Shown here one piece after another: positions 1,216 to 24,807 of a stretch of DNA of 25,203 nt. The position numbers were made by a program, and so were the translations under genes. Numbering within the stretch: position 1 is the stretch's first letter; the number at the start of each line of letters is the position of its first letter. The notes under the pieces were generated by a model. That model saw only the letters and a program-made list of their open reading frames with translations, did not search any database and had not been told where the DNA came from. The stretch is from the NCBI GenBank assembly GCA_046497275.1, contig JAWOFX010000006.1, positions 1-25,203 on the forward strand. The letters run 5' to 3'. Source of the stretch: Promethearchaeia archaeon. GTDB taxonomy: Archaea > Asgardarchaeota > Lokiarchaeia > Sigyniarchaeales > SOKP01.

Positions 1216-4008
1216 TTATCTGCCCTTAATCCCATCAATTAGGAGTCTCAACATGATTTTAAGACTTAAATCCAATGGTTTGGGTTTAACTTTCCCATGT
1301 TTTTCTGGATCATAATCCTCATTCACTTCTCGAACCCATTCAAGATAAGATATATTTAATAGATCTTCTATATCAAATTCTTTTATTAATTTCTTAGCTA
1401 TTTCATTATAAATTGAAAAATTATCTACAATACGAGATTTTTCTCTATTCCCAATAATTATCAATGGAGGGAATGCAAAATGATCAGCAAAATTTTGAAC
1501 TTCATCTGGAGGTTTATCTCCTGAATAAGGTGATAATACCAGTTCAAATGATATTTTTTGACCGCTGAATGTAGGAGCTGTAGAATGATATGTTCCAAAA
1601 AGTTGAGGAATTATTTTTTGAGCATGTCTGGAACCTTCAGACCAATAATTAAAATGTTCTCCATAATAAGTACCAAAAGGGTTAATTCTAATTTGTTGCC
1701 CTCTGAGATGAGTATCTCCAAAACCCTTATCTTTGAGTTTTATGGGAGAGAAAGCAAAATTAGCGGCCTTTAAAGCGTTAAATCCAATTAATAATCCTTT
1801 CTTCTTATTTGTTATAGCCATCCAGCCATCTGAGATATTTGCAACCATACATCCAATGTCAGAATTCTTAGCATCAACTAGTTTCATATCACAATCAAAA
1901 TGAGAAACATATCCCATAAAATTCTTTTTCCAAATTCTTAAAGGAGTTTCTAAACCGATAATATTAGGTTTAATTTCACAGGGCATTACCTCTCGCCATC
2001 GCTCGTCCCAGGGATCTTCAACAAATGAGGTTCCATCTTCACTGCATCTTTCACCTTTAATATCACATAAATTCATTTTAACATCAACGAAGATTTTATC
2101 TAAATTCGAATATAATGTAATATTTTTCTCTACGTGAACTAATGCACCCTCTATTATTTCAAATTTAGAGATAAGTTTGATTTTTGCTGAAAAACCATCA
2201 TTTCCATCTCGTAAAACAACAATTTCGTTTTCATTTGATGAATATCTTTTAGCTTTCTTAGGATCTCCGAAAACTACTGCAGAATCAAGAAAATTCTTAC
2301 AAGCAAATTCCTCATTCTTAAATTGTAATGAATTTAATCTTCCCTCTTCATCAAAAAGTATCGTGATAAATTCATTGGATATCTCTTTTTTGCTTGCTCG
2401 TAATTTATTTGTTTTTGAAGCTTGTTTCTGCTCTTGGAAATTTAAATTTATTTGATATAAATTTTGGTCAGAAAAAGCTGAAGAGTTAATAATTGCCTCG
2501 AATATAAATTCAGATTTTTCATTTTGTTGGTATAGAGAAAAGCTAATATTATCTTTTATTGAAAGGGTTTTTGCTTGATTAGCGATTATTTGGTTAATTT
2601 GTTCTGGAAGAGGTGTTTTTATAAATATCGGAGTATTTATACTTAATTTTTCCCTCTTAGAGATACCACGATCTATTATAGGAATAATAGTTAGGAGAAG
2701 ATCATTCTCTCGCACATTGCTATAGATTTTTGCCAGAGAATTTTCTATTGCAATTTGGAGAGCTTTATTAGCCGCAAAATGAGAACGAATTGCATAATTC
2801 ATAGCAGTCTTTCGTCGATGTGGATGTTGGAATGGCATAGACATACCAAAATTAGTAGTAGAGGCAAAGAGTATCTGGTTTTTAATATAAGTATCTGCAA
2901 CATCGTTCTTATCATGAATAAATCTATTTATTTCTTTATCTTCTTTAGTTAAATAATTTGATTTTAAGGTATCAGTAATACATTTAAACCATCGTGCTCT
3001 TTGTCCAATAGTCCAAAAGCGAGTATTATTATATTTCTGAGCCCAATTATAAAAACCATTCCAATTCCCGTCAGCAGCATCTTGTTTAAGAATAGTTCTA
3101 CCATAAACCTTCATTTTTGGAATAACATCAATTAAATTGCCAAATTCAACGTAATCGTAAGCATCGACAATTTCAGCAAATTCATCCAATCCCTGTGTAT
3201 TAGGCATCCAACTTAAAAATTTAGGTAAATTAATTCCAATCCAATTGTCATAATCCATATCAAAATTAAGAAATAGAAGTGCATGTCCTTCAATTAAATT
3301 CTTCTTTTGATAAATTCTAATCTTCTCAAACCATTTTTTCAAAGAATAATAATCAAGGATATCACCAAATCCATACATTGGAATCATCAACATAGATGCA
3401 TCTGAGACCGCAGATTGAAATTCAACTAATCCATATCTTTGGTTCGCATCCAATCTTGGATTTAGAAAGGGGCGCCCCACATCAAAAGGATAAACTGAAT
3501 AATAAATCCCTATTCCCTCTACCCCTAATTTATTATATTGCTCGATCATCCCTTGAGTAAACATGGTTTCTTGAGTTCTTGCATAGGGAACCACTCGATC
3601 GCCAAATAACTGATTCACCCCCATTCCCATAGTATTTTCTAAAAACCATTTATGTTGTATTTCAAATTGTTCTGTATCCAAAATTGGTTGTGCCACATTT
3701 CCCCATGATCCAATTAAAACTTCATCTTTTCCTGCTTTACATCGTTTAATAACTCTTTGAAGGACGTCTGGTTGAAATTCTTGTTGTAATTGAATTGACC
3801 AAAAGGTATCTGCATAGTCCCAAGTGAGACGTAATTCTCCATTACAAAGCCCTTGGTTTTCAATTTCATCTATTTTATCAAGAATTGCTTTCATAAGTTT
3901 CATATCTTTTCCAAACCCTGTTGGTCCTCGACTATCACCTCGATAGGAATGATAATAATTTATATGGGGCGAAATTACAAAGTATATCTTTTTCTCTTCT
4001 ATATCCAA
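1216..4008 (-). CDS. Large glycoside hydrolase-like protein, 930 aa (GH57/GH38-type N-terminal barrel plus C-terminal beta-sandwich)
   Basis: Long open ORF with TTG start behind a GTGAGG SD-like motif. N-terminal PHINYYH, IGSWGNVAQPIL, ARTQETMF and FLNFDMDYDNW resemble GH57 conserved regions (HxH, nucleophile Glu, acid/base Asp). The C-terminal third is beta-rich (ISNEFITILFDEEGRLNSL), like the GH38-C supersandwich. The family call is an inference. Confidence 0.6.
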   Translation of the reverse strand: MDIEEKKIYFVISPHINYYHSYRGDSRGPTGFGKDMKLMKAILDKIDEIENQGLCNGELRLTWDYADTFWSIQLQQEFQPDVLQRVIKRCKAGKDEVLIGSWGNVAQPILDTEQFEIQHKWFLENTMGMGVNQLFGDRVVPYARTQETMFTQGMIEQYNKLGVEGIGIYYSVYPFDVGRPFLNPRLDANQRYGLVEFQSAVSDASMLMIPMYGFGDILDYYSLKKWFEKIRIYQKKNLIEGHALLFLNFDMDYDNWIGINLPKFLSWMPNTQGLDEFAEIVDAYDYVEFGNLIDVIPKMKVYGRTILKQDAADGNWNGFYNWAQKYNNTRFWTIGQRARWFKCITDTLKSNYLTKEDKEINRFIHDKNDVADTYIKNQILFASTTNFGMSMPFQHPHRRKTAMNYAIRSHFAANKALQIAIENSLAKIYSNVRENDLLLTIIPIIDRGISKREKLSINTPIFIKTPLPEQINQIIANQAKTLSIKDNISFSLYQQNEKSEFIFEAIINSSAFSDQNLYQINLNFQEQKQASKTNKLRASKKEISNEFITILFDEEGRLNSLQFKNEEFACKNFLDSAVVFGDPKKAKRYSSNENEIVVLRDGNDGFSAKIKLISKFEIIEGALVHVEKNITLYSNLDKIFVDVKMNLCDIKGERCSEDGTSFVEDPWDERWREVMPCEIKPNIIGLETPLRIWKKNFMGYVSHFDCDMKLVDAKNSDIGCMVANISDGWMAITNKKKGLLIGFNALKAANFAFSPIKLKDKGFGDTHLRGQQIRINPFGTYYGEHFNYWSEGSRHAQKIIPQLFGTYHSTAPTFSGQKISFELVLSPYSGDKPPDEVQNFADHFAFPPLIIIGNREKSRIVDNFSIYNEIAKKLIKEFDIEDLLNISYLEWVREVNEDYDPEKHGKVKPKPLDLSLKIMLRLLIDGIKGR

Positions 4009-6681: not shown

Positions 6682-7407
6682 TTAGATTTCAAAACAAAGC
6701 CATCGAATTACATTTGTGAAGAACTTCAAATTATCTCCAGCATCTAAACCGAAGTCGTTATCTTCAAGCATAAATTCTGAAGATCCAATGGAAAATGCTC
6801 TTCCATTATAAAAATCACTAGTAGCACATACGGGAACGGGGCCCACTAAATCAATTGTATCATCGCTCAAATATTTAAATTCCGCTTTTTCAGAGGTCAT
6901 TATTATATCTTCTGCATCCTCTGTAAGACTTAAGAAAGTGCAGTGAGGTAAAATTAATTCAGTTACTCCTTTTGTAATTGGATGTGTGTATAAGTCCGTA
7001 AAAAGAAGATTATGTTTTTTTACATGAAAATTTTCCTTTGACTCATAAATCACACCATTCCAAAATCTTCGTACTCCTGTGATCTTATAGAGTACTCGAA
7101 TAGATCCTTGTTTCATTGGTATATCAAGATCTCCTCCTTTTCCCGTTGAAAGGAAAAGACCTCCTCCTTCACCAACAAATCTTTTTATTGCCTTTAGTTC
7201 TTCAGGAGTAAATTTATCTTTTTTTTTATCTTCAGTATGTTTTATATACCCAATGAATAAGACATCATAGTCTTCTAATTTCCCGAATTCAATTGGACCT
7301 TCATTTTTATCTAAATAATCTATTTCATAGAGATCCTCACCTAAAGAAAACTCGGGAAATTCAATCTTTTCATTTTTAGTGAGATCAACTAAAATTCGGT
7401 AAGACAT
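6682..7407 (-). CDS. Stand-alone GIFT-domain protein (IFT52/GldG/DUF4350, class I GATase-like fold), 241 aa
   Basis: KFTPEELKAIKRFVGEGGGLFLSTGKGGD, HPITKGV..LILP, GRAFSIGSSEF and DNLKFFTNVIRWL match the GIFT-domain pattern. No catalytic GATase Cys elbow is evident. Confidence 0.75.
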   Translation of the reverse strand: MSYRILVDLTKNEKIEFPEFSLGEDLYEIDYLDKNEGPIEFGKLEDYDVLFIGYIKHTEDKKKDKFTPEELKAIKRFVGEGGGLFLSTGKGGDLDIPMKQGSIRVLYKITGVRRFWNGVIYESKENFHVKKHNLLFTDLYTHPITKGVTELILPHCTFLSLTEDAEDIIMTSEKAEFKYLSDDTIDLVGPVPVCATSDFYNGRAFSIGSSEFMLEDNDFGLDAGDNLKFFTNVIRWLCFEI

Positions 7408-11547: not shown

Positions 11548-12504
11548 TTGGATTTTGGATTAATTGGTGCCGTATTTAAAAATGCCAAATTAAATAAACT
11601 GCATAAAAAAGCGATTGAATTTGCAGAAAAGAAAGACTTTAAAAACGCAATCGCAAATTTTCTTAAAATTCTCGATGAGCTCCCTGACCATGCAACTACA
11701 TGGAAAAATCTCGGAACCGCTTATTATGAAGCACAAGATTATGAGAATGCAGTTCGGAGTTTTAAAAAAGCTTTATTGTACGATTCAAGTTTAAATGAAG
11801 CTAATTTTGGTCAAGCTTTCGCATTGCTCGCACTAAACAAATTATCTGAAGCTCAACCAATACTTATATCTGCGTTGAAGAAAAAACCTGACTTTGTGAT
11901 CGGATGGATAAATCTCGCTAAATTATATTGGCACCAAGGAGAACATCAAAAAGCAATTGATGAATTCTTGAAAGCTTTAAAAAGAGAACCCCAAAATGTT
12001 GATGCTATGCAAGGAATTGCTGAAGCTTATTTTAGAACGCGTCAAAATGAAAAAGCAATAGAGTATTTTGAAAAATTAACAAAAGAACTACCAGAAAATA
12101 CTCACGTACTATTAAGATTAGGAGAATTATATGGCAATAGTGAACAATTTGAGCTTGCTCGAGAGAAACTAGCTAAAGCTCTCAAGATTAACCCAAACTT
12201 TCACGATGCCTTATTCATGTTTGCCAAAATTGATATTTTAACTAACAAATTTTCAGAAGCAGTAAAAAAGCTTGAAAAATTAGCCAAAACCCATCCCAAT
12301 AATCACGAAATTTTGTTTAGTTTAGGAACGGCTCTTGGAAATGGAGGAAACGTGTCCAAAGCGATTGAAACGTTCGAAAGTGTGATAACACTTCAACCTA
12401 ATTTAGCTGAAGCATGGAAATCCTTAGCTGTGTGCTATAATCATATAGGAAACAAAGAAAAAGCCGATAAATGCGTAGCGAAATACAAAGAATTAATATC
12501 ATAA
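11548..12504 (+). CDS. Tetratricopeptide repeat protein, 318 aa (about 8 TPRs)
   Basis: Repeated 34-aa units with W/F..LG..Y...G....A...F.KAL...P; TTG start after GGAG. Confidence 0.93.
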   Translation: MDFGLIGAVFKNAKLNKLHKKAIEFAEKKDFKNAIANFLKILDELPDHATTWKNLGTAYYEAQDYENAVRSFKKALLYDSSLNEANFGQAFALLALNKLSEAQPILISALKKKPDFVIGWINLAKLYWHQGEHQKAIDEFLKALKREPQNVDAMQGIAEAYFRTRQNEKAIEYFEKLTKELPENTHVLLRLGELYGNSEQFELAREKLAKALKINPNFHDALFMFAKIDILTNKFSEAVKKLEKLAKTHPNNHEILFSLGTALGNGGNVSKAIETFESVITLQPNLAEAWKSLAVCYNHIGNKEKADKCVAKYKELIS

Positions 12505-12932: not shown

Positions 12933-13205
12933 TTATTCAAAAGAGATTTCAAGATTATTTTTGATAGCATATTCTTTAGCTTCCTTATCAGAGTCAAATC
13001 TTTTCATAATATAATACTCACCCTTTATTCTTCTACATCCTATAGATATTTCAGTTATAGGTCTTGCTTCATTTTGGGGTTCTAAATAAACTCGAATCAA
13101 ACAAAATGAAATATCATCTTGATATTCTTTGCATTTTGTACAATGTTGTGGCCCTCTAGCACAATGGATTTTTGGCATCTTTTTTATGATATCAATATGA
13201 TCCAT
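12933..13205 (-). CDS. Small Cys/His-rich hypothetical protein, 90 aa, putative metal binder
   Basis: ATG start; HCARGPQHCTKC plus two further Cys; co-oriented downstream of the LRR gene. Confidence 0.75.
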   Translation of the reverse strand: MDHIDIIKKMPKIHCARGPQHCTKCKEYQDDISFCLIRVYLEPQNEARPITEISIGCRRIKGEYYIMKRFDSDKEAKEYAIKNNLEISFE

Positions 13206-13344: not shown

Positions 13345-14949
13345 TTAAAAAAAATCAGTGATTTTAGTCTGATCCTTATTAAATAGCCAGTATTTAAACT
13401 TGTTTGTAATTTTTCCCCCCCATATTGCATTTGAGTTGTAAATTTCCTCGAAATCCTCAATTTCATCATAAGTGATTTTATTTTTTTTCATAAGTTTATT
13501 CATTTTTATAACCCATTTGGTAAAATCCTTGTATAATCTATCATCTGATCTGGATCTCGCCTTTGATTTATGAGTTTCTTCATAATAATCAACAGCCTTT
13601 TGAGTAAATCCTGTGAAATAACAATAATTTTGATCATTCCAAAACAATTCGTTCGTAGCTTCCTCATAAACTCTAATATCACAATTCCATACTTTAAGAA
13701 TCCTCAAATTTGGCAATTGGGCTAAAGTTTCTGGAATTTTTTTTAATGTCTTATTTCCAGATAAGTTTAATCGTTTTAAATTCACTAAACCTTCGATGTT
13801 TTTTAGATCGCAGATTTTGTTATTCCGAAGTGATAAATCCTCGACTGAGGTGATGTTATTGATATTTGTAATGTCCTCAATCATATTATTATCCAATCTA
13901 AGAATTTTGAGATTAATATATTTTTCAATGCCCTTCAAATCTGTAATTAAGTTATTTGATAAATCTAATTCTATAATCGTTGATATTGAGTCCTCAATAC
14001 CTTCAATACAGTCTATATCTACGATTTTTTTATCATTTAAAAATAACTTATCATCATCGAGCATACCAATTATTCTTGATTTGTATTTGATGAGTTCAAA
14101 TTCCTCTAAATTAAAAGCATCAATATTATTATTGATAAATTTAATTTTTGGAAAGGTCGAGTTTTTTTTGTAGTGATTATACAATAATAAAGCTAATTCA
14201 TTTTGTTTATCATCGGGGATTCTTTGTTTTATTTTTGAAAATATTAATGGAATATGTTTTATATTAAAATTATTGAGAATTCCTTGAAATAGAGAAAAGA
14301 GATATTGATTTGAGTATCGTTGCGGTTGATTAAAATATGTATTTAAATTTCTAACAAAATTATCTAAAAAAGAGAGACTTAAATCATCCATAATGCTTTC
14401 TAATTCATCGCTAGATAAGTGTCGCAAATAATTTTCCTGTATTAAGTAATTTATAACTGTTGGATGATTACTTGCTAATCTTAAAGCAATCTCCTCTTTA
14501 AATACTTTTTTTGCTTCTGGGTCACCAACTTCGACTAATCTCTTGAGTAAAGGGAATGCTAAATTTCTATGTAAAATACGAGTGTCATATCCGTTTTCTG
14601 CCCAAGCAGTTATATTAGAACAGTGACCCCAGAATTCAACTTCTGGTGTTATTCCATGCTGTCCCACTCTATTTCCCTCCATTGAGCGATCTAAATGTTC
14701 GGCAGCTTTATCAATAGAATCAATATCTTCATAATCTCTTATTTTATCCATAGGGATATTTAATAAAAGGTACATACACTGACGAAATCTTTGATTTTTA
14801 ACATAAATATTGGTCACTCCATTCTCAAGTTTAAGCTTTATATATTCATTTACTTTATATTCTTTTTTAGGAGATGGATTTCTAACTATAGTGAAAAATG
14901 TAATCATAAATAAAACAAAAGTCGATAGAATTATTTTAAGGTAATTCAT
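13345..14949 (-). CDS. Multidomain leucine-rich repeat protein with unnamed N-terminal domain and C-terminal PIP box, 534 aa
   Basis: About 5 LxxLxLxxNxI repeats. N-terminal block KEYKVNEYIKLKL...FWGHCSN..AW.EN.YDTRILHRNLAFPLL, recalled as typical of expanded lokiarchaeal paralogues. The protein ends in QTKITDFF. Confidence 0.9.
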   Translation of the reverse strand: MNYLKIILSTFVLFMITFFTIVRNPSPKKEYKVNEYIKLKLENGVTNIYVKNQRFRQCMYLLLNIPMDKIRDYEDIDSIDKAAEHLDRSMEGNRVGQHGITPEVEFWGHCSNITAWAENGYDTRILHRNLAFPLLKRLVEVGDPEAKKVFKEEIALRLASNHPTVINYLIQENYLRHLSSDELESIMDDLSLSFLDNFVRNLNTYFNQPQRYSNQYLFSLFQGILNNFNIKHIPLIFSKIKQRIPDDKQNELALLLYNHYKKNSTFPKIKFINNNIDAFNLEEFELIKYKSRIIGMLDDDKLFLNDKKIVDIDCIEGIEDSISTIIELDLSNNLITDLKGIEKYINLKILRLDNNMIEDITNINNITSVEDLSLRNNKICDLKNIEGLVNLKRLNLSGNKTLKKIPETLAQLPNLRILKVWNCDIRVYEEATNELFWNDQNYCYFTGFTQKAVDYYEETHKSKARSRSDDRLYKDFTKWVIKMNKLMKKNKITYDEIEDFEEIYNSNAIWGGKITNKFKYWLFNKDQTKITDFF

Positions 14950-15235: not shown

Positions 15236-16231
15236 ATGGATTATGTTATTCATAATAGAAAAAAATTTGAAGTTATAGAAAGTCATTTAGATCTTTCAGC
15301 AAAAGGCATTGTGGATATCAAAAATATTGATGGTTTAGAAAAATTATCCGATTTAAAGAGTCTTGACTTAAGTTATAATGATATAAAGCATATCGAAGGA
15401 TTAAATACTTTAAATGGTTTAGAATATTTAGATCTCTCGTCTAATCAAATTGGTAAAATTCAGAATCTTAATCAGTTACCAAATCTAAGAAGATTATATC
15501 TGGACAATAATCTTATAATCAAAATTGAAGGATTAGATAACCAGAAGGATTTAGAAATTCTTGAATTAAGTGGTAATAATTTAAGATTAATCTCTAATAT
15601 AGACCATCTATACAAGCTTGATATGTTGAAAGTGAATATGAATAGAATTTTTGAGTTAAGTGGATTTAATAATCTAAAGAGTCTTACGAAACTTTATCTG
15701 GAACATAATGAGATAACCACAATTGAAAATCTTGATAATTTAAGTAATCTTAAGGTACTCAATTTAAATGATAATGAAATAAAGAAAGTAGAAAATCTAG
15801 AAGAATTATATCGCTTAGAAGCCCTAATATTAGGCAATAATTATATTCCTGAGATCTCTGGATTAAATGAACAATTTAAATTAATGCTACTTAATTTCGA
15901 AAATAATAAAATCTTAGAAATAAGGGGTTTGGATGATTGTGACGATTTACACATACTTAATCTCTCAAAAAATAAAATTTTAGAAGTGAAAACGGGAGAT
16001 TTATCAAAATTGAAAAATTTAGTAAATTTAGATTTAAGTAACAATAAAATAAAAAAAATTGAGGGCTTAAAAGATTTAAACCATCTTAGAATTCTCAATT
16101 TAAAAAATAATCAAATAGAGAATTTCGATGTTCTAAAATCTCTACCAGAATTAGAAACTGTTTATCTTCAAAATAATGAGATTTCTTCAGCGGAGCTAAA
16201 AGATCTTGAGGATGAATTCGAGAACAAATAA
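15236..16231 (+). CDS. SDS22/internalin-like leucine-rich repeat protein, 331 aa
   Basis: About 13 consecutive ~22-aa repeats (LxxLxLxxNxIxxIxxL) plus a degenerate first repeat; no other domain. Confidence 0.95.
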   Translation: MDYVIHNRKKFEVIESHLDLSAKGIVDIKNIDGLEKLSDLKSLDLSYNDIKHIEGLNTLNGLEYLDLSSNQIGKIQNLNQLPNLRRLYLDNNLIIKIEGLDNQKDLEILELSGNNLRLISNIDHLYKLDMLKVNMNRIFELSGFNNLKSLTKLYLEHNEITTIENLDNLSNLKVLNLNDNEIKKVENLEELYRLEALILGNNYIPEISGLNEQFKLMLLNFENNKILEIRGLDDCDDLHILNLSKNKILEVKTGDLSKLKNLVNLDLSNNKIKKIEGLKDLNHLRILNLKNNQIENFDVLKSLPELETVYLQNNEISSAELKDLEDEFENK

Positions 16232-23031: not shown

Positions 23032-23364
23032 TCAATATTTTATACCTGTTTTCAATACTTCGGTTATTAAAGGATTTTTATTATCCACCATTTCCTTAAA
23101 TTCTTGATTTGTGTATACTAAGGGTTCAATTGGCAAATCTGTTAGATCTAAAACTTTTTCTATCCTCTTTAGAAAGGGTTCTTTAAAATCTCCCACTATG
23201 ATTAAATCGATATCACTCCCCTCATGAATTTTCTTTTTAGCAAAAGATCCGAATAGATAAATAAAATCAACTGGTAATTCTGCTTTTAATTGTTTTATAA
23301 ATTCCTCTATCTTTCCATAAATTTCTTCACGATTTGTAATATCGATTCTGCATAATTTAGGCAT
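23032..23364 (-). CDS. Minimal nucleotidyltransferase (MNT), 110 aa
   Basis: YLFGSFAKKKIHEGSDIDLIIV (GSx10DxD) and IEPLVYT; paired with the upstream HEPN gene. Confidence 0.92.
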   Translation of the reverse strand: MPKLCRIDITNREEIYGKIEEFIKQLKAELPVDFIYLFGSFAKKKIHEGSDIDLIIVGDFKEPFLKRIEKVLDLTDLPIEPLVYTNQEFKEMVDNKNPLITEVLKTGIKY

Positions 23365-23714
23365 TTTTTGGCATCCTCCTCTTCATAAAACTCAAATGGA
23401 GCTAAATTTCCAGCAAGTCCATTTGGGTATCTAGTTGGGATATAATATAAATCGAGAGATTTTGCTTCTGATTCTTTTGTAGAAAACTCACTTTCAATTT
23501 TCTTTGCTTCTCTAATCAATTCTTTTAATGAATGCGTAAGAATTGAGGTGTATCCATTTTTATATAAAAATGACTTTATACCTTTTTCTGCAGCTTGTTG
23601 AGCTTGAAAACAGCTCCATTCATAATTTTGTGTCTTTAAACTATTTTTAGCCGCATCTAAGTCTGCTTTCGCTTGTTTATACCATCTATATCCTAATTCT
23701 GATATAATAATCAC
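23307..23714 (-). CDS. HEPN domain protein (COG2250/sacsin-type), 135 aa
   Basis: WYKQAKADLDAA, WSCFQAQQAAEKGIK, THSL and YIPTRYP motifs. Confidence 0.93.
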   Translation of the reverse strand: MIIISELGYRWYKQAKADLDAAKNSLKTQNYEWSCFQAQQAAEKGIKSFLYKNGYTSILTHSLKELIREAKKIESEFSTKESEAKSLDLYYIPTRYPNGLAGNLAPFEFYEEEDAKKCLNYAESILQIVKKFMER

Positions 23715-24350: not shown

Positions 24351-24513
24351 GTATCAATCCTTTAAATTTCCCTTAATTCATCTCTATCAAATTAAGATAT
24401 ATAAATAAGAAAAAACAAGAAAATTCTTGATAATTTATTTATTTTCAATCTATTGGAATGGAGCAATCTTTCTATAAACTTTAAAAGCAATGCAAATAAC
24501 TTTTTTATTGGAA

Positions 24514-24807
24514 ATGCTTACTAAAGAAAAAATATTGGATGAGTTAAAAAGATTAAAACCTGAATTAGAGGAGAAATATAAAGTTAAATCAATTGGCCTT
24601 TTTGGATCTTATTTAAATGATGATGTCTCAGAAAAAAGTGATATCGATATTTTAGTTGAATTCTATAAAGGCGCTGATTTATTTGATTATATCGGGCTAA
24701 ACTTATTTTTGGAAAAGACATTTAATAAGAAAGTCGATTTAGTTTCTAAACCCGCATTAAGAGATGAATTGAGAAATTATATCCTGAAAGATGTTGCATA
24801 TTTATGA
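24514..24807 (+). CDS. Minimal nucleotidyltransferase (COG1669-type MNT), about 97 aa
   Basis: IGLFGSY....SEKSDIDILVEF, KKVDLVS and LRDELRNYIL motifs. The second ATG (MLTKEKIL) gives the usual family length; the ORF track start is 24490. Confidence 0.9.
   Translation: MLTKEKILDELKRLKPELEEKYKVKSIGLFGSYLNDDVSEKSDIDILVEFYKGADLFDYIGLNLFLEKTFNKKVDLVSKPALRDELRNYILKDVAYL

Follow-up and report, generated by a model that had tools for sequence, protein, structure and literature searches.

A conserved leucine-rich repeat protein of Lokiarchaeia with a C-terminal PIP box as a probable membrane-tethered PCNA adaptor

Introduction

Clients that bind the sliding clamp PCNA through a PIP box are already known, among them the PolD large subunit DP2, Nre, FEN1, RNase HII and the p21/Cdt1 proteins with 'TD' boxes. 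These proteins, either enzymes acting on DNA or nucleotides or small regulators, carry the motif at a free C-terminus behind a variable linker and keep it among their orthologues. Leucine-rich repeat (LRR) proteins such as SDS22 (PPP1R7), internalin B and SHOC2, on the other hand, are scaffolds in which LxxLxLxxNxI repeats form a solenoid. LRR adaptors tied to the replisome are known in eukaryotes, namely LRR1 of CUL2-LRR1 and LRWD1/ORCA, neither of which is known to be membrane-anchored or reliant on a C-terminal PIP box. The LRR proteins of Asgard archaea are almost all of unknown function (preprint 10.64898/2026.10.28.762692).

The protein described here is encoded in a window of Lokiarchaeial DNA, by which is meant the whole stretch of 25,203 nucleotides that was analysed. 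The original prediction was of an LRR protein ending in a PIP box and possibly anchored in the membrane at its N-terminus, an architecture said to be undescribed in prokaryotes. In the literature searched (Asgard and archaeal PCNA, PIP-box and LRR topics) this architecture was likewise not found, nor was any PCNA client, whether archaeal or eukaryotic, with a membrane anchor or an LRR-based build. What would be new is therefore not the use of a PIP box but a membrane-anchored client assembled from LRRs and an Asgard-specific domain. On balance we consider this conserved protein to be a probable membrane-tethered PCNA adaptor, with a cytoplasmic body, a PIP box that would bind PCNA, and an LRR region and N-domain that would hold a second partner. 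If the PCNA reading is true, one conserved Asgard LRR protein gains a concrete and testable partner.

Results and Discussion

Gene and domain organisation

The features of the gene and its product are collected in Table 1. Orthologues are mostly 510–540 aa in length, and more than 100 full-length orthologues at 42–71% identity were identified. The AF2 model of the protein (overall pLDDT 84, pTM 0.68) places an N-terminal helix (residues 2–23) ahead of beta-hairpins (29–55), an acidic loop (60–97), which is conserved across sequences and modelled with low confidence, and helical repeats (102–275), followed by the LRR solenoid (286–427) and a helical C-domain (430–525).

Table 1. Coordinates of the LRR gene and of the features of its product within the window
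Feature	Position	Strand	Basis or remark
Whole ORF (P0001)	13345..14949	(-)	534 aa + stop, open from ATG
N-terminal single-pass hydrophobic helix, residues 4-22	14884..14940	(-)	Kyte-Doolittle 2.32; AF2 helix 2-23, pLDDT ~88
N-domain, residues 26-200	14350..14874	(-)	Alignment; beta-hairpins, conserved acidic loop, helical bundle
Helical linker/repeat region, residues 201-285	14095..14349	(-)	AF2 helices 193-274, pLDDT 84-93
SDS22/internalin-type 22-residue LRR solenoid, residues 286-427	13669..14094	(-)	Pfam LRR_4; Foldseek
Helical C-domain, family-specific, residues 428-526	13372..13668	(-)	Alignment; without PDB sequence relative
Small module at end of C-domain, residues ~491-526	13372-13479	(-)	Common to L018, L021 and L041 proteins
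C-terminal PIP box QTKITDFF, residues 527-534	13348..13371	(-)	Sequence, conservation, predicted PCNA contacts
TAA stop immediately behind PIP box	13345..13347	(-)	Sequence

The C-terminal PIP box

The octapeptide QTKITDFF, which the original prediction had placed directly ahead of the stop codon, is present there, and these final eight residues of the protein fit the pattern Qxx[ILM]xx[FY][FYLWM]. A scan of the 3.85-Mb genome (3470 ORFs) for octamers fitting Qxx[ILMV]xx[FYW][FYWLIM] gave a frequency of 2.7e-4 per position, and ~0.94 exact C-terminal octamers are expected by chance among the 3470 ORFs. A lone C-terminal PIP octamer in this genome is therefore insignificant taken by itself. In contrast to the single occurrence, its conservation is significant. 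The terminal motif Qxx[IL]xx[FY]-hydrophobic was kept in 118 of 120 aligned orthologues (42–71% identity) and formed the extreme C-terminus in 113 of these carriers, so the conservation that the original prediction had asked for is there.

Inspection of the alignment columns also indicates this. Among the 118 carriers, the glutamine, the I/L and the F/Y are each found in all 118 and a hydrophobic last residue in 116. The information content was 4.25 bits for Q527, 4.03 for I530, 3.64 for T531 and 3.71 for F533, against 2.0–2.8 bits at the x positions, and the 3–4 residues ahead of Q527 are variable and contain indels. Position 5 is T in most orthologues and position 6 is D in ~30%, with I-T-D-F-F a frequent reading. 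A column pattern of this kind is typical of a short linear motif in which selection acts on the positions predicted to contact PCNA. The motif lies in an accessible terminal segment, as indicated by its C-terminal placement, the variable residues that precede it and model confidence that declines along the tail from a pLDDT of 80 for residues 521–530 to 64 for residues 531–534, with a short helix at 530–533.

The same pattern is enriched at the C-termini of proteins encoded in this genome, with seven exact cases where 0.94 would be expected; for matches within the last 12 residues the figures are 18 observed and 2.8 expected. Among the other carriers Pfam recognised the PolD large subunit DP2, Nre, a LigD 3'-phosphoesterase, two DUF72 proteins, a RecU-like protein, a Y-family polymerase and a dNK-like kinase; a 352-aa FEN1-like carrier was judged on length and tail alone. 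Given these 18 carriers near C-termini and the DNA-metabolism proteins among them, the terminal PIP pattern is a good predictor of DNA-metabolism proteins in this genome. Two further carriers, one APS-kinase-like and one HGD-D-like, look like chance matches.

The LRR protein differs from the known PIP clients in that it has no recognisable DNA-related domain, and instead has LRRs, an Asgard-specific N-domain and, in most orthologues, a membrane anchor. It also differs from a PIP degron; the motif ends the protein, for which reason the basic residue at +4 is missing and the motif is no PIP degron.

Predicted docking on PCNA

The genome encodes only one PCNA, of 267 aa, on contig C83 at L013:1495-2295. 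A complex of this PCNA with residues 428–534 of the LRR protein was modelled using alignments of our own making, and calibration counts of the method therefore hold roughly; by these counts 58 of 80 solved complexes attain the mark of 0.78, as do 2 of 110 mismatched pairs. The complex scored 0.78 (three runs, 0.77–0.79), whereas the three controls with unrelated partners scored 0.00–0.10. Contacts agreed in at least 76% between runs, and the partner had a pLDDT of at least 80. The predicted interface joins residues 523 and 526–534 of the LRR protein with PCNA residues 41, 44–48, 128–135, 231–232 and 248–253, with I530 in the hydrophobic pocket, F533 against PCNA 231–232 and 248, and Q527 against 252. 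As modelled, this is the canonical PIP mode, involving the pocket, the interdomain connector loop and the C-terminal tail of PCNA, and is the same site at which the known PIP clients bind. The proposed modelling of the tail with an Asgard PCNA has thus placed residues 526–534 in the canonical PIP site. Since many PIP-PCNA structures have already been solved, a pass of this kind shows likeness, and the score may partly reflect memory of, or resemblance to, those structures and not true affinity. The complex model supports binding to PCNA without demonstrating it.

It could be argued that the conserved octapeptide is not a PCNA ligand at all, and that it folds back on the C-domain or the LRR groove of the same protein (autoinhibition) or serves as a motif for another partner. 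The intermediate pLDDT of the tail and its short helix would leave room for such a contact in cis, replication genes were not found near the LRR gene, and the complex score may be owed to PIP complexes that have already been solved. Nevertheless, we regard this explanation as unlikely, as conservation falls precisely on the positions that make the predicted PCNA contacts, with variation at the x positions, the DNA-metabolism proteins of the genome show a strong enrichment of this terminal pattern, and the unrelated controls scored so low.

N-terminal anchor and topology

Residues 4–22 (LKIILSTFVLFMITFFTIV) are the sole strongly hydrophobic stretch of the protein, with a mean Kyte-Doolittle value of 2.32 against 0.76 for the next-best window. 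As the original prediction had noted, more basic residues follow this stretch than precede it, with one K before and R23, K28, K29 and K32 after. A comparable N-terminal hydrophobic helix with positive charge on its C-terminal side is found in at least 79 of the 120 orthologues, in which the n-region, often MLEIQ, has on average 0.19 K/R and 0.30 D/E, while the 15 residues past the helix have 2.95 K/R. The net charge of the n-region is zero or negative in 69 of these 79 orthologues, and the h-region is 17–19 residues long. By the positive-inside rule this distribution predicts an anchor with its N-terminus outside and its C-terminus inside, which would leave the body of the protein in the cytoplasm, as had been proposed. 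A cytoplasmic setting is also supported by the fusions of the N-domain to Ras/Roc GTPases and TPRs in other proteins, and by paralogues that combine the N-domain with LRRs and have neither anchor nor PIP box.

The suggested conservation of the segment holds in part, as it applies to the orthologues counted above but not to one clade (P0093 and its relatives), which is genuinely without the helix, stop codons being found upstream, and has kept all of the other domains and the terminal motif. Another orthologue that seemed to be without an anchor (P0063) was set aside as a miscalled start, an upstream TTG restoring the hydrophobic helix. The anchor would accordingly be a common but accessory feature and not a universal one, of a protein whose body is probably cytoplasmic in either case. 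Given that a clade without the helix exists, membrane tethering cannot be the whole function of the protein.

A cleaved export signal had been raised in the original prediction as the finding that would count against it. The segment does not have the character of a Sec-type cleaved signal peptide, in that the n-region has hardly any positive charge, which lies after the helix, and it looks instead like an uncleaved anchor. This bears on a further explanation, under which the protein would be exported or displayed at the surface in the manner of the bacterial internalins, the N-terminal segment being a signal peptide or an N-in anchor and the PIP-like tail being irrelevant. The presence of an N-terminal hydrophobic segment and repeats that most resemble those of internalin and SDS22 are in keeping with such a protein, but we consider it very improbable. 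The n-region is often acidic, the hydrophobic stretch of 17–19 residues fits an anchor, one clade has no transmembrane helix, and the N-domain is fused elsewhere to cytosolic Ras/Roc GTPases. The class 1 internalin models of NCBIfam gave scores of 15–40 bits, far from their cut-offs of 1050–1700, and an exported protein would offer no explanation for the strict conservation of the terminal PIP pattern.

The LRR solenoid

The identification of the protein as an LRR protein was upheld by a match to Pfam LRR_4 (E 3.5e-13, 49.8 bits with a cut-off of 27), with its best stretch at residues 326–365, and by the solenoid in the AF2 model, which comprises about six SDS22-type LRRs at a pLDDT of 88–95. 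With tandem LxxLxLxxNxI repeats of 22 residues that exceed the Pfam cut-off, and with its solenoid fold, it belongs to the SDS22-like class. When the whole model was compared with the PDB using Foldseek, the LRR part matched InlB, LIC12234, SDS22 and SHOC2 (E ~5e-6) and nothing except LRR proteins was found; a search of the Atlas with the whole model returned matches limited to its own family, relatives of the N-domain and generic LRR proteins. No domains apart from the LRRs were found in a scan of the protein with Pfam and NCBIfam, and an E2 or E3 domain, sought with Pfam, was not found.

The likeness to SDS22, InlB and SHOC2 amounts to 23–37% identity over 105–190 columns and extends to the likely role as a protein-binding scaffold. 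It covers ~140 of the 534 residues, however, and the flanking domains, the anchor and the PIP tail have no counterpart in those proteins. Like LRR1 and LRWD1/ORCA, the Lokiarchaeial protein would be an LRR protein acting upon the replication machinery; unlike them, it has no PH, BC-box or WD40 region, and the homology is confined to generic LRRs. Pfam LRR_LRWD1 gave a weak, sub-threshold match (24.1 bits with a cut-off of 28).

The N-domain and the C-domain

Across 155 N-domains, C58, H109 and C110 are conserved at 96–97%, H127 at 88%, and S111, N112, W116 and Y121 at 97–100%. The protein had been described as non-enzymatic, and that part of the original prediction is not established, because this cluster of Cys, His, Ser and Asn is near-invariant and a metal site or a catalytic centre is possible. 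At E<=1e-3, a profile of the N-domain retrieved 2786 representative proteins, with as many as 11 copies in a single protein, and in ten representatives that were scanned it was found fused to Ras/Roc GTPases, TPRs and LRRs. Its structural matches in the Atlas were to Promethearchaeota clusters only. A comparison of the fold with 48,161 chains using VIA-align gave a best Z of 4.2, which is below noise for helical models, and Foldseek found no relative in the PDB (best E 1.5).

Three paralogues in the same genome (L002, L003 and L004) share the N-domain of ~170 residues at 42–50% identity, including the conserved C/H/C/H, S, N, W and Y, and combine it with LRRs, but they are without the anchor, the C-domain and the PIP box. 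Among Asgard N-domain proteins, the full combination of anchor, N-domain, LRRs, C-domain and PIP box is limited to this orthologous group.

A profile of the C-domain found nothing below E 0.4 among PDB sequences, and its matches, all to coiled-coil iSH2, were treated as chance; an Atlas feature search with the C-domain gave no usable match. The last ~35 residues ahead of the PIP box form a module that was also found in GIFT-like proteins of 420 aa and at the front of HisKA-receiver proteins, in both cases without a PIP box.

Proposed role

Given the features described above, it is logical to assume an adaptor that works as follows. The N-terminal helix would insert into the membrane with its N-terminus outside, an orientation that we infer from the charge distribution, leaving a body of 510 residues in the cytoplasm. 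This body would act as a chain of interaction modules, consisting of the N-domain, the helical linker, about six LRRs and the helical C-domain, from which the PIP box would project on a short variable linker as the free C-terminus. Its predicted docking site is the pocket, the interdomain connector loop and the C-terminal tail of the single PCNA. An adaptor of this kind could tether PCNA to the membrane on its cytoplasmic side, and with it PCNA-loaded DNA or replisomes, or it could deliver cargo bound by the LRRs and the N-domain to PCNA.

Distribution and gene neighbourhood

When 400 genomes of the phylum were searched with a single C-domain sequence, 72 matches were strong (E of 1e-14 or lower), all but one of them in one GTDB family (f1) and the remaining one in a second (f3). 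With weak matches included, the C-domain was found in 86 of 134 genomes of f1, 2 of 14 of f3 and 1 of 4 of a further family (f4), with one copy in most genomes. No full-length orthologue was found with the C-domain profile in genera g2, g6 and g7, where only the small shared module occurs. The orthologous group thus seems to be patchily spread within the same family, and for this reason it is probably not part of the core replication machinery.

The neighbours of the gene in the window are housekeeping genes, encoding a proteasome subunit, a ThrRS editing domain, an aminotransferase and MGMT, and no replication-related genes were found near it there. The original prediction had also suggested a sensor of, or decoy for, replicating foreign DNA. 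This defence reading found no support and was set aside, in view of the housekeeping neighbours, the conserved chromosomal synteny and the finding that neither the LRR protein nor the products of its two nearest neighbour genes had a match in PADLOC. The only PADLOC matches nearby, weak ones on a neighbouring TPR protein (11548–12504), were attributed to its TPR repeats.

One of the recurrent features of the related genomes is a near single-copy gene for a ubiquitin-like protein (Ubl) of 82–84 aa ending in GG. Comparing coordinates by eye, we found this gene 0.2–4 kb from the LRR orthologue in ~58 of the ~66 genomes having both. Two layouts were seen: in the first, Ubl lies directly upstream of the LRR gene and is co-directional with it, and in the second it lies ~2 kb upstream and is divergent, with a 65-aa coiled-coil/proline-tailed gene and a 368-aa wHTH gene between them. 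One related locus has genes of 65 aa and 370 aa, and no Ubl gene was called there. A gene for ThiF (E1-like) is found 4–5 kb from the orthologue at several loci. The Ubl and LRR genes lie close together in two different layouts, which hints moderately at a functional link and serves as a lead, and the recurrent neighbourhood adds a testable link to Ubl signalling. Part of the linkage may be explained by inherited gene order among kin genomes.

This neighbourhood could mean that the PCNA adaptor works with the Ubl system, either bringing PCNA or its clients to Ubl conjugation or being itself a Ubl target. Eukaryotic analogues are PCNA ubiquitylation, the PIP-degron/CRL4-Cdt2 system and CUL2-LRR1. 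Besides the recurrent Ubl gene and the ThiF gene, the frequent I-T-D-F-F reading would fit such a role in resembling the high-affinity 'TD' PIP boxes. Against this, three genomes have the genes on different contigs: the one studied here, its closest relative (G274), and G178. In the present genome the Ubl and wHTH genes are on contig C168, and no Ubl gene was found in the window. The Ubl-wHTH pair is also kept at sites without any N-domain or C-domain protein within ~6 kb, so that the linkage could be one of inherited order, and the LRR protein has no detected E2 or E3 domain. We therefore give a Ubl role a low probability; it would refine the reading as a PCNA adaptor and does not exclude it. 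A bolder form, in which the anchored LRR protein would be the receptor of a PCNA-directed arm of the Lokiarchaeial Ubl system, would capture PCNA by a terminal PIP box of high affinity and would couple PCNA or its clients to Ubl conjugation, must be called a long shot. If true, eukaryotic PCNA ubiquitylation and replisome control based on LRRs or PIP degrons would have a prokaryotic forerunner or analogue in this arm, which would also tie replication spatially to the Asgard cell membrane.

Metatranscriptome matches

Metatranscriptome contigs from two salt-lake studies contained ten matching pieces of the ORF, all between positions 13429 and 14729, and none of them matched the flanks of the ORF. 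Such contigs are uninformative on strand, transcript ends and expression level, and the start codon lies outside the coverage, which ends at 14729. The matches are compatible with transcription of the LRR gene, a hint that allows for possible carry-over of DNA. All ten pieces matched at an identity of at least 95%, and nine of them at 99% or more.

N-domain of P0001 and its family

The N-domain of the LRR protein P0001 belongs to a family of 2786 representatives at E<=1e-3, with a maximum of 11 copies in one protein, and this family is very large and apparently Asgard-restricted. Near-invariant positions in the family were C/H/C/H, S, N, W and Y, and Ras/Roc, TPR and LRR were identified as fusion partners in the scanned relatives. 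No Pfam model matched the family and no PDB fold matched the N-domain of P0001. For the orthologue P0063 the database start was probably miscalled, as an in-frame TTG upstream adds a hydrophobic N-terminal helix, as found in other orthologues.

Ubiquitin-like genes near the orthologues

A ubiquitin-like (Ubl) gene, whose product ends in GG, was located 0.2-4 kb from the P0001 orthologue in ~58 of ~66 related genomes, as counted by a by-eye comparison of coordinates. This neighbourhood comes in two layouts, and a ThiF (E1-like) gene often lies 4-5 kb away. In the genome carrying P0001, the Ubl gene and the wHTH gene that accompanies it in one of these layouts are found on another contig, C168 (loci L038 and L039), apart from the P0001 gene.

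The C-terminal region and other PIP-like tails

Immediately preceding the PIP box of P0001 is a module of ~35 residues (…Y.DI..FE….AIW.G[KR].T..FK.WL), for which Pfam holds no matching model. It recurs without a PIP box in GIFT/ABC_transp_aux-like proteins of 420 aa and, in an N-terminal position, in HisKA-receiver proteins. The window also encodes a 241-aa ORF with faint IFT52-GIFT/ThuA matches, which is possibly related to the N-terminal portion of these module-bearing GIFT-like proteins.

C-terminal PIP-like boxes occur in the same genome on expected carriers (Nre, PolD DP2, a Y-family polymerase and a FEN1-like protein) and also on unexpected ones, namely a dNK-like deoxynucleoside kinase, two DUF72 proteins, a LigD 3'-phosphoesterase and a RecU-like protein.

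Coordinates of the features described (L, loci outside the window)
Feature	Location	Strand
N-domain of P0001	window 14350-14874	-
~35-residue module of P0001	window 13372-13479	-
Proteins sharing the module	L018:453-1709	+
	L021:423-1685	+
	L041:757-1707; 2150-3073	-
P0063 upstream extension	L016:7927-8003	+
Ubl/orthologue neighbourhoods	L034:7595-9602; L014:7566-9620; L016:5837-9533; L033:6011-9536; L035:2949-6605; L036:2954-6665	
Unexpected PIP-like-box proteins	L028:1-720; L023:1-873; L029:1-801	+
	L027:1-603; L030:1-501	-
241-aa ORF	window 6682-7407	-
331-aa LRR protein	window 15236-16231	+
930-aa ORF	window 1216-4008	-
90-aa Cys-rich ORF	window 12933-13205	-
Nucleotidyltransferase/HEPN pair	window 23032-23714	-
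Stand-alone nucleotidyltransferase	window 24490-24807	+

Other ORFs in the window

Divergent from the P0001 gene, across a 286-bp spacer, is the gene of a 331-aa protein made up almost entirely of SDS22-type LRRs (LRR_4, E 5e-40), with neither anchor nor PIP box. Pfam and PADLOC gave no match for the Cys-rich ORF directly downstream of the P0001 gene or for the 930-aa ORF. An overlapping, toxin-antitoxin-like gene pair encodes a minimal nucleotidyltransferase and a HEPN protein, and a second nucleotidyltransferase stands alone.
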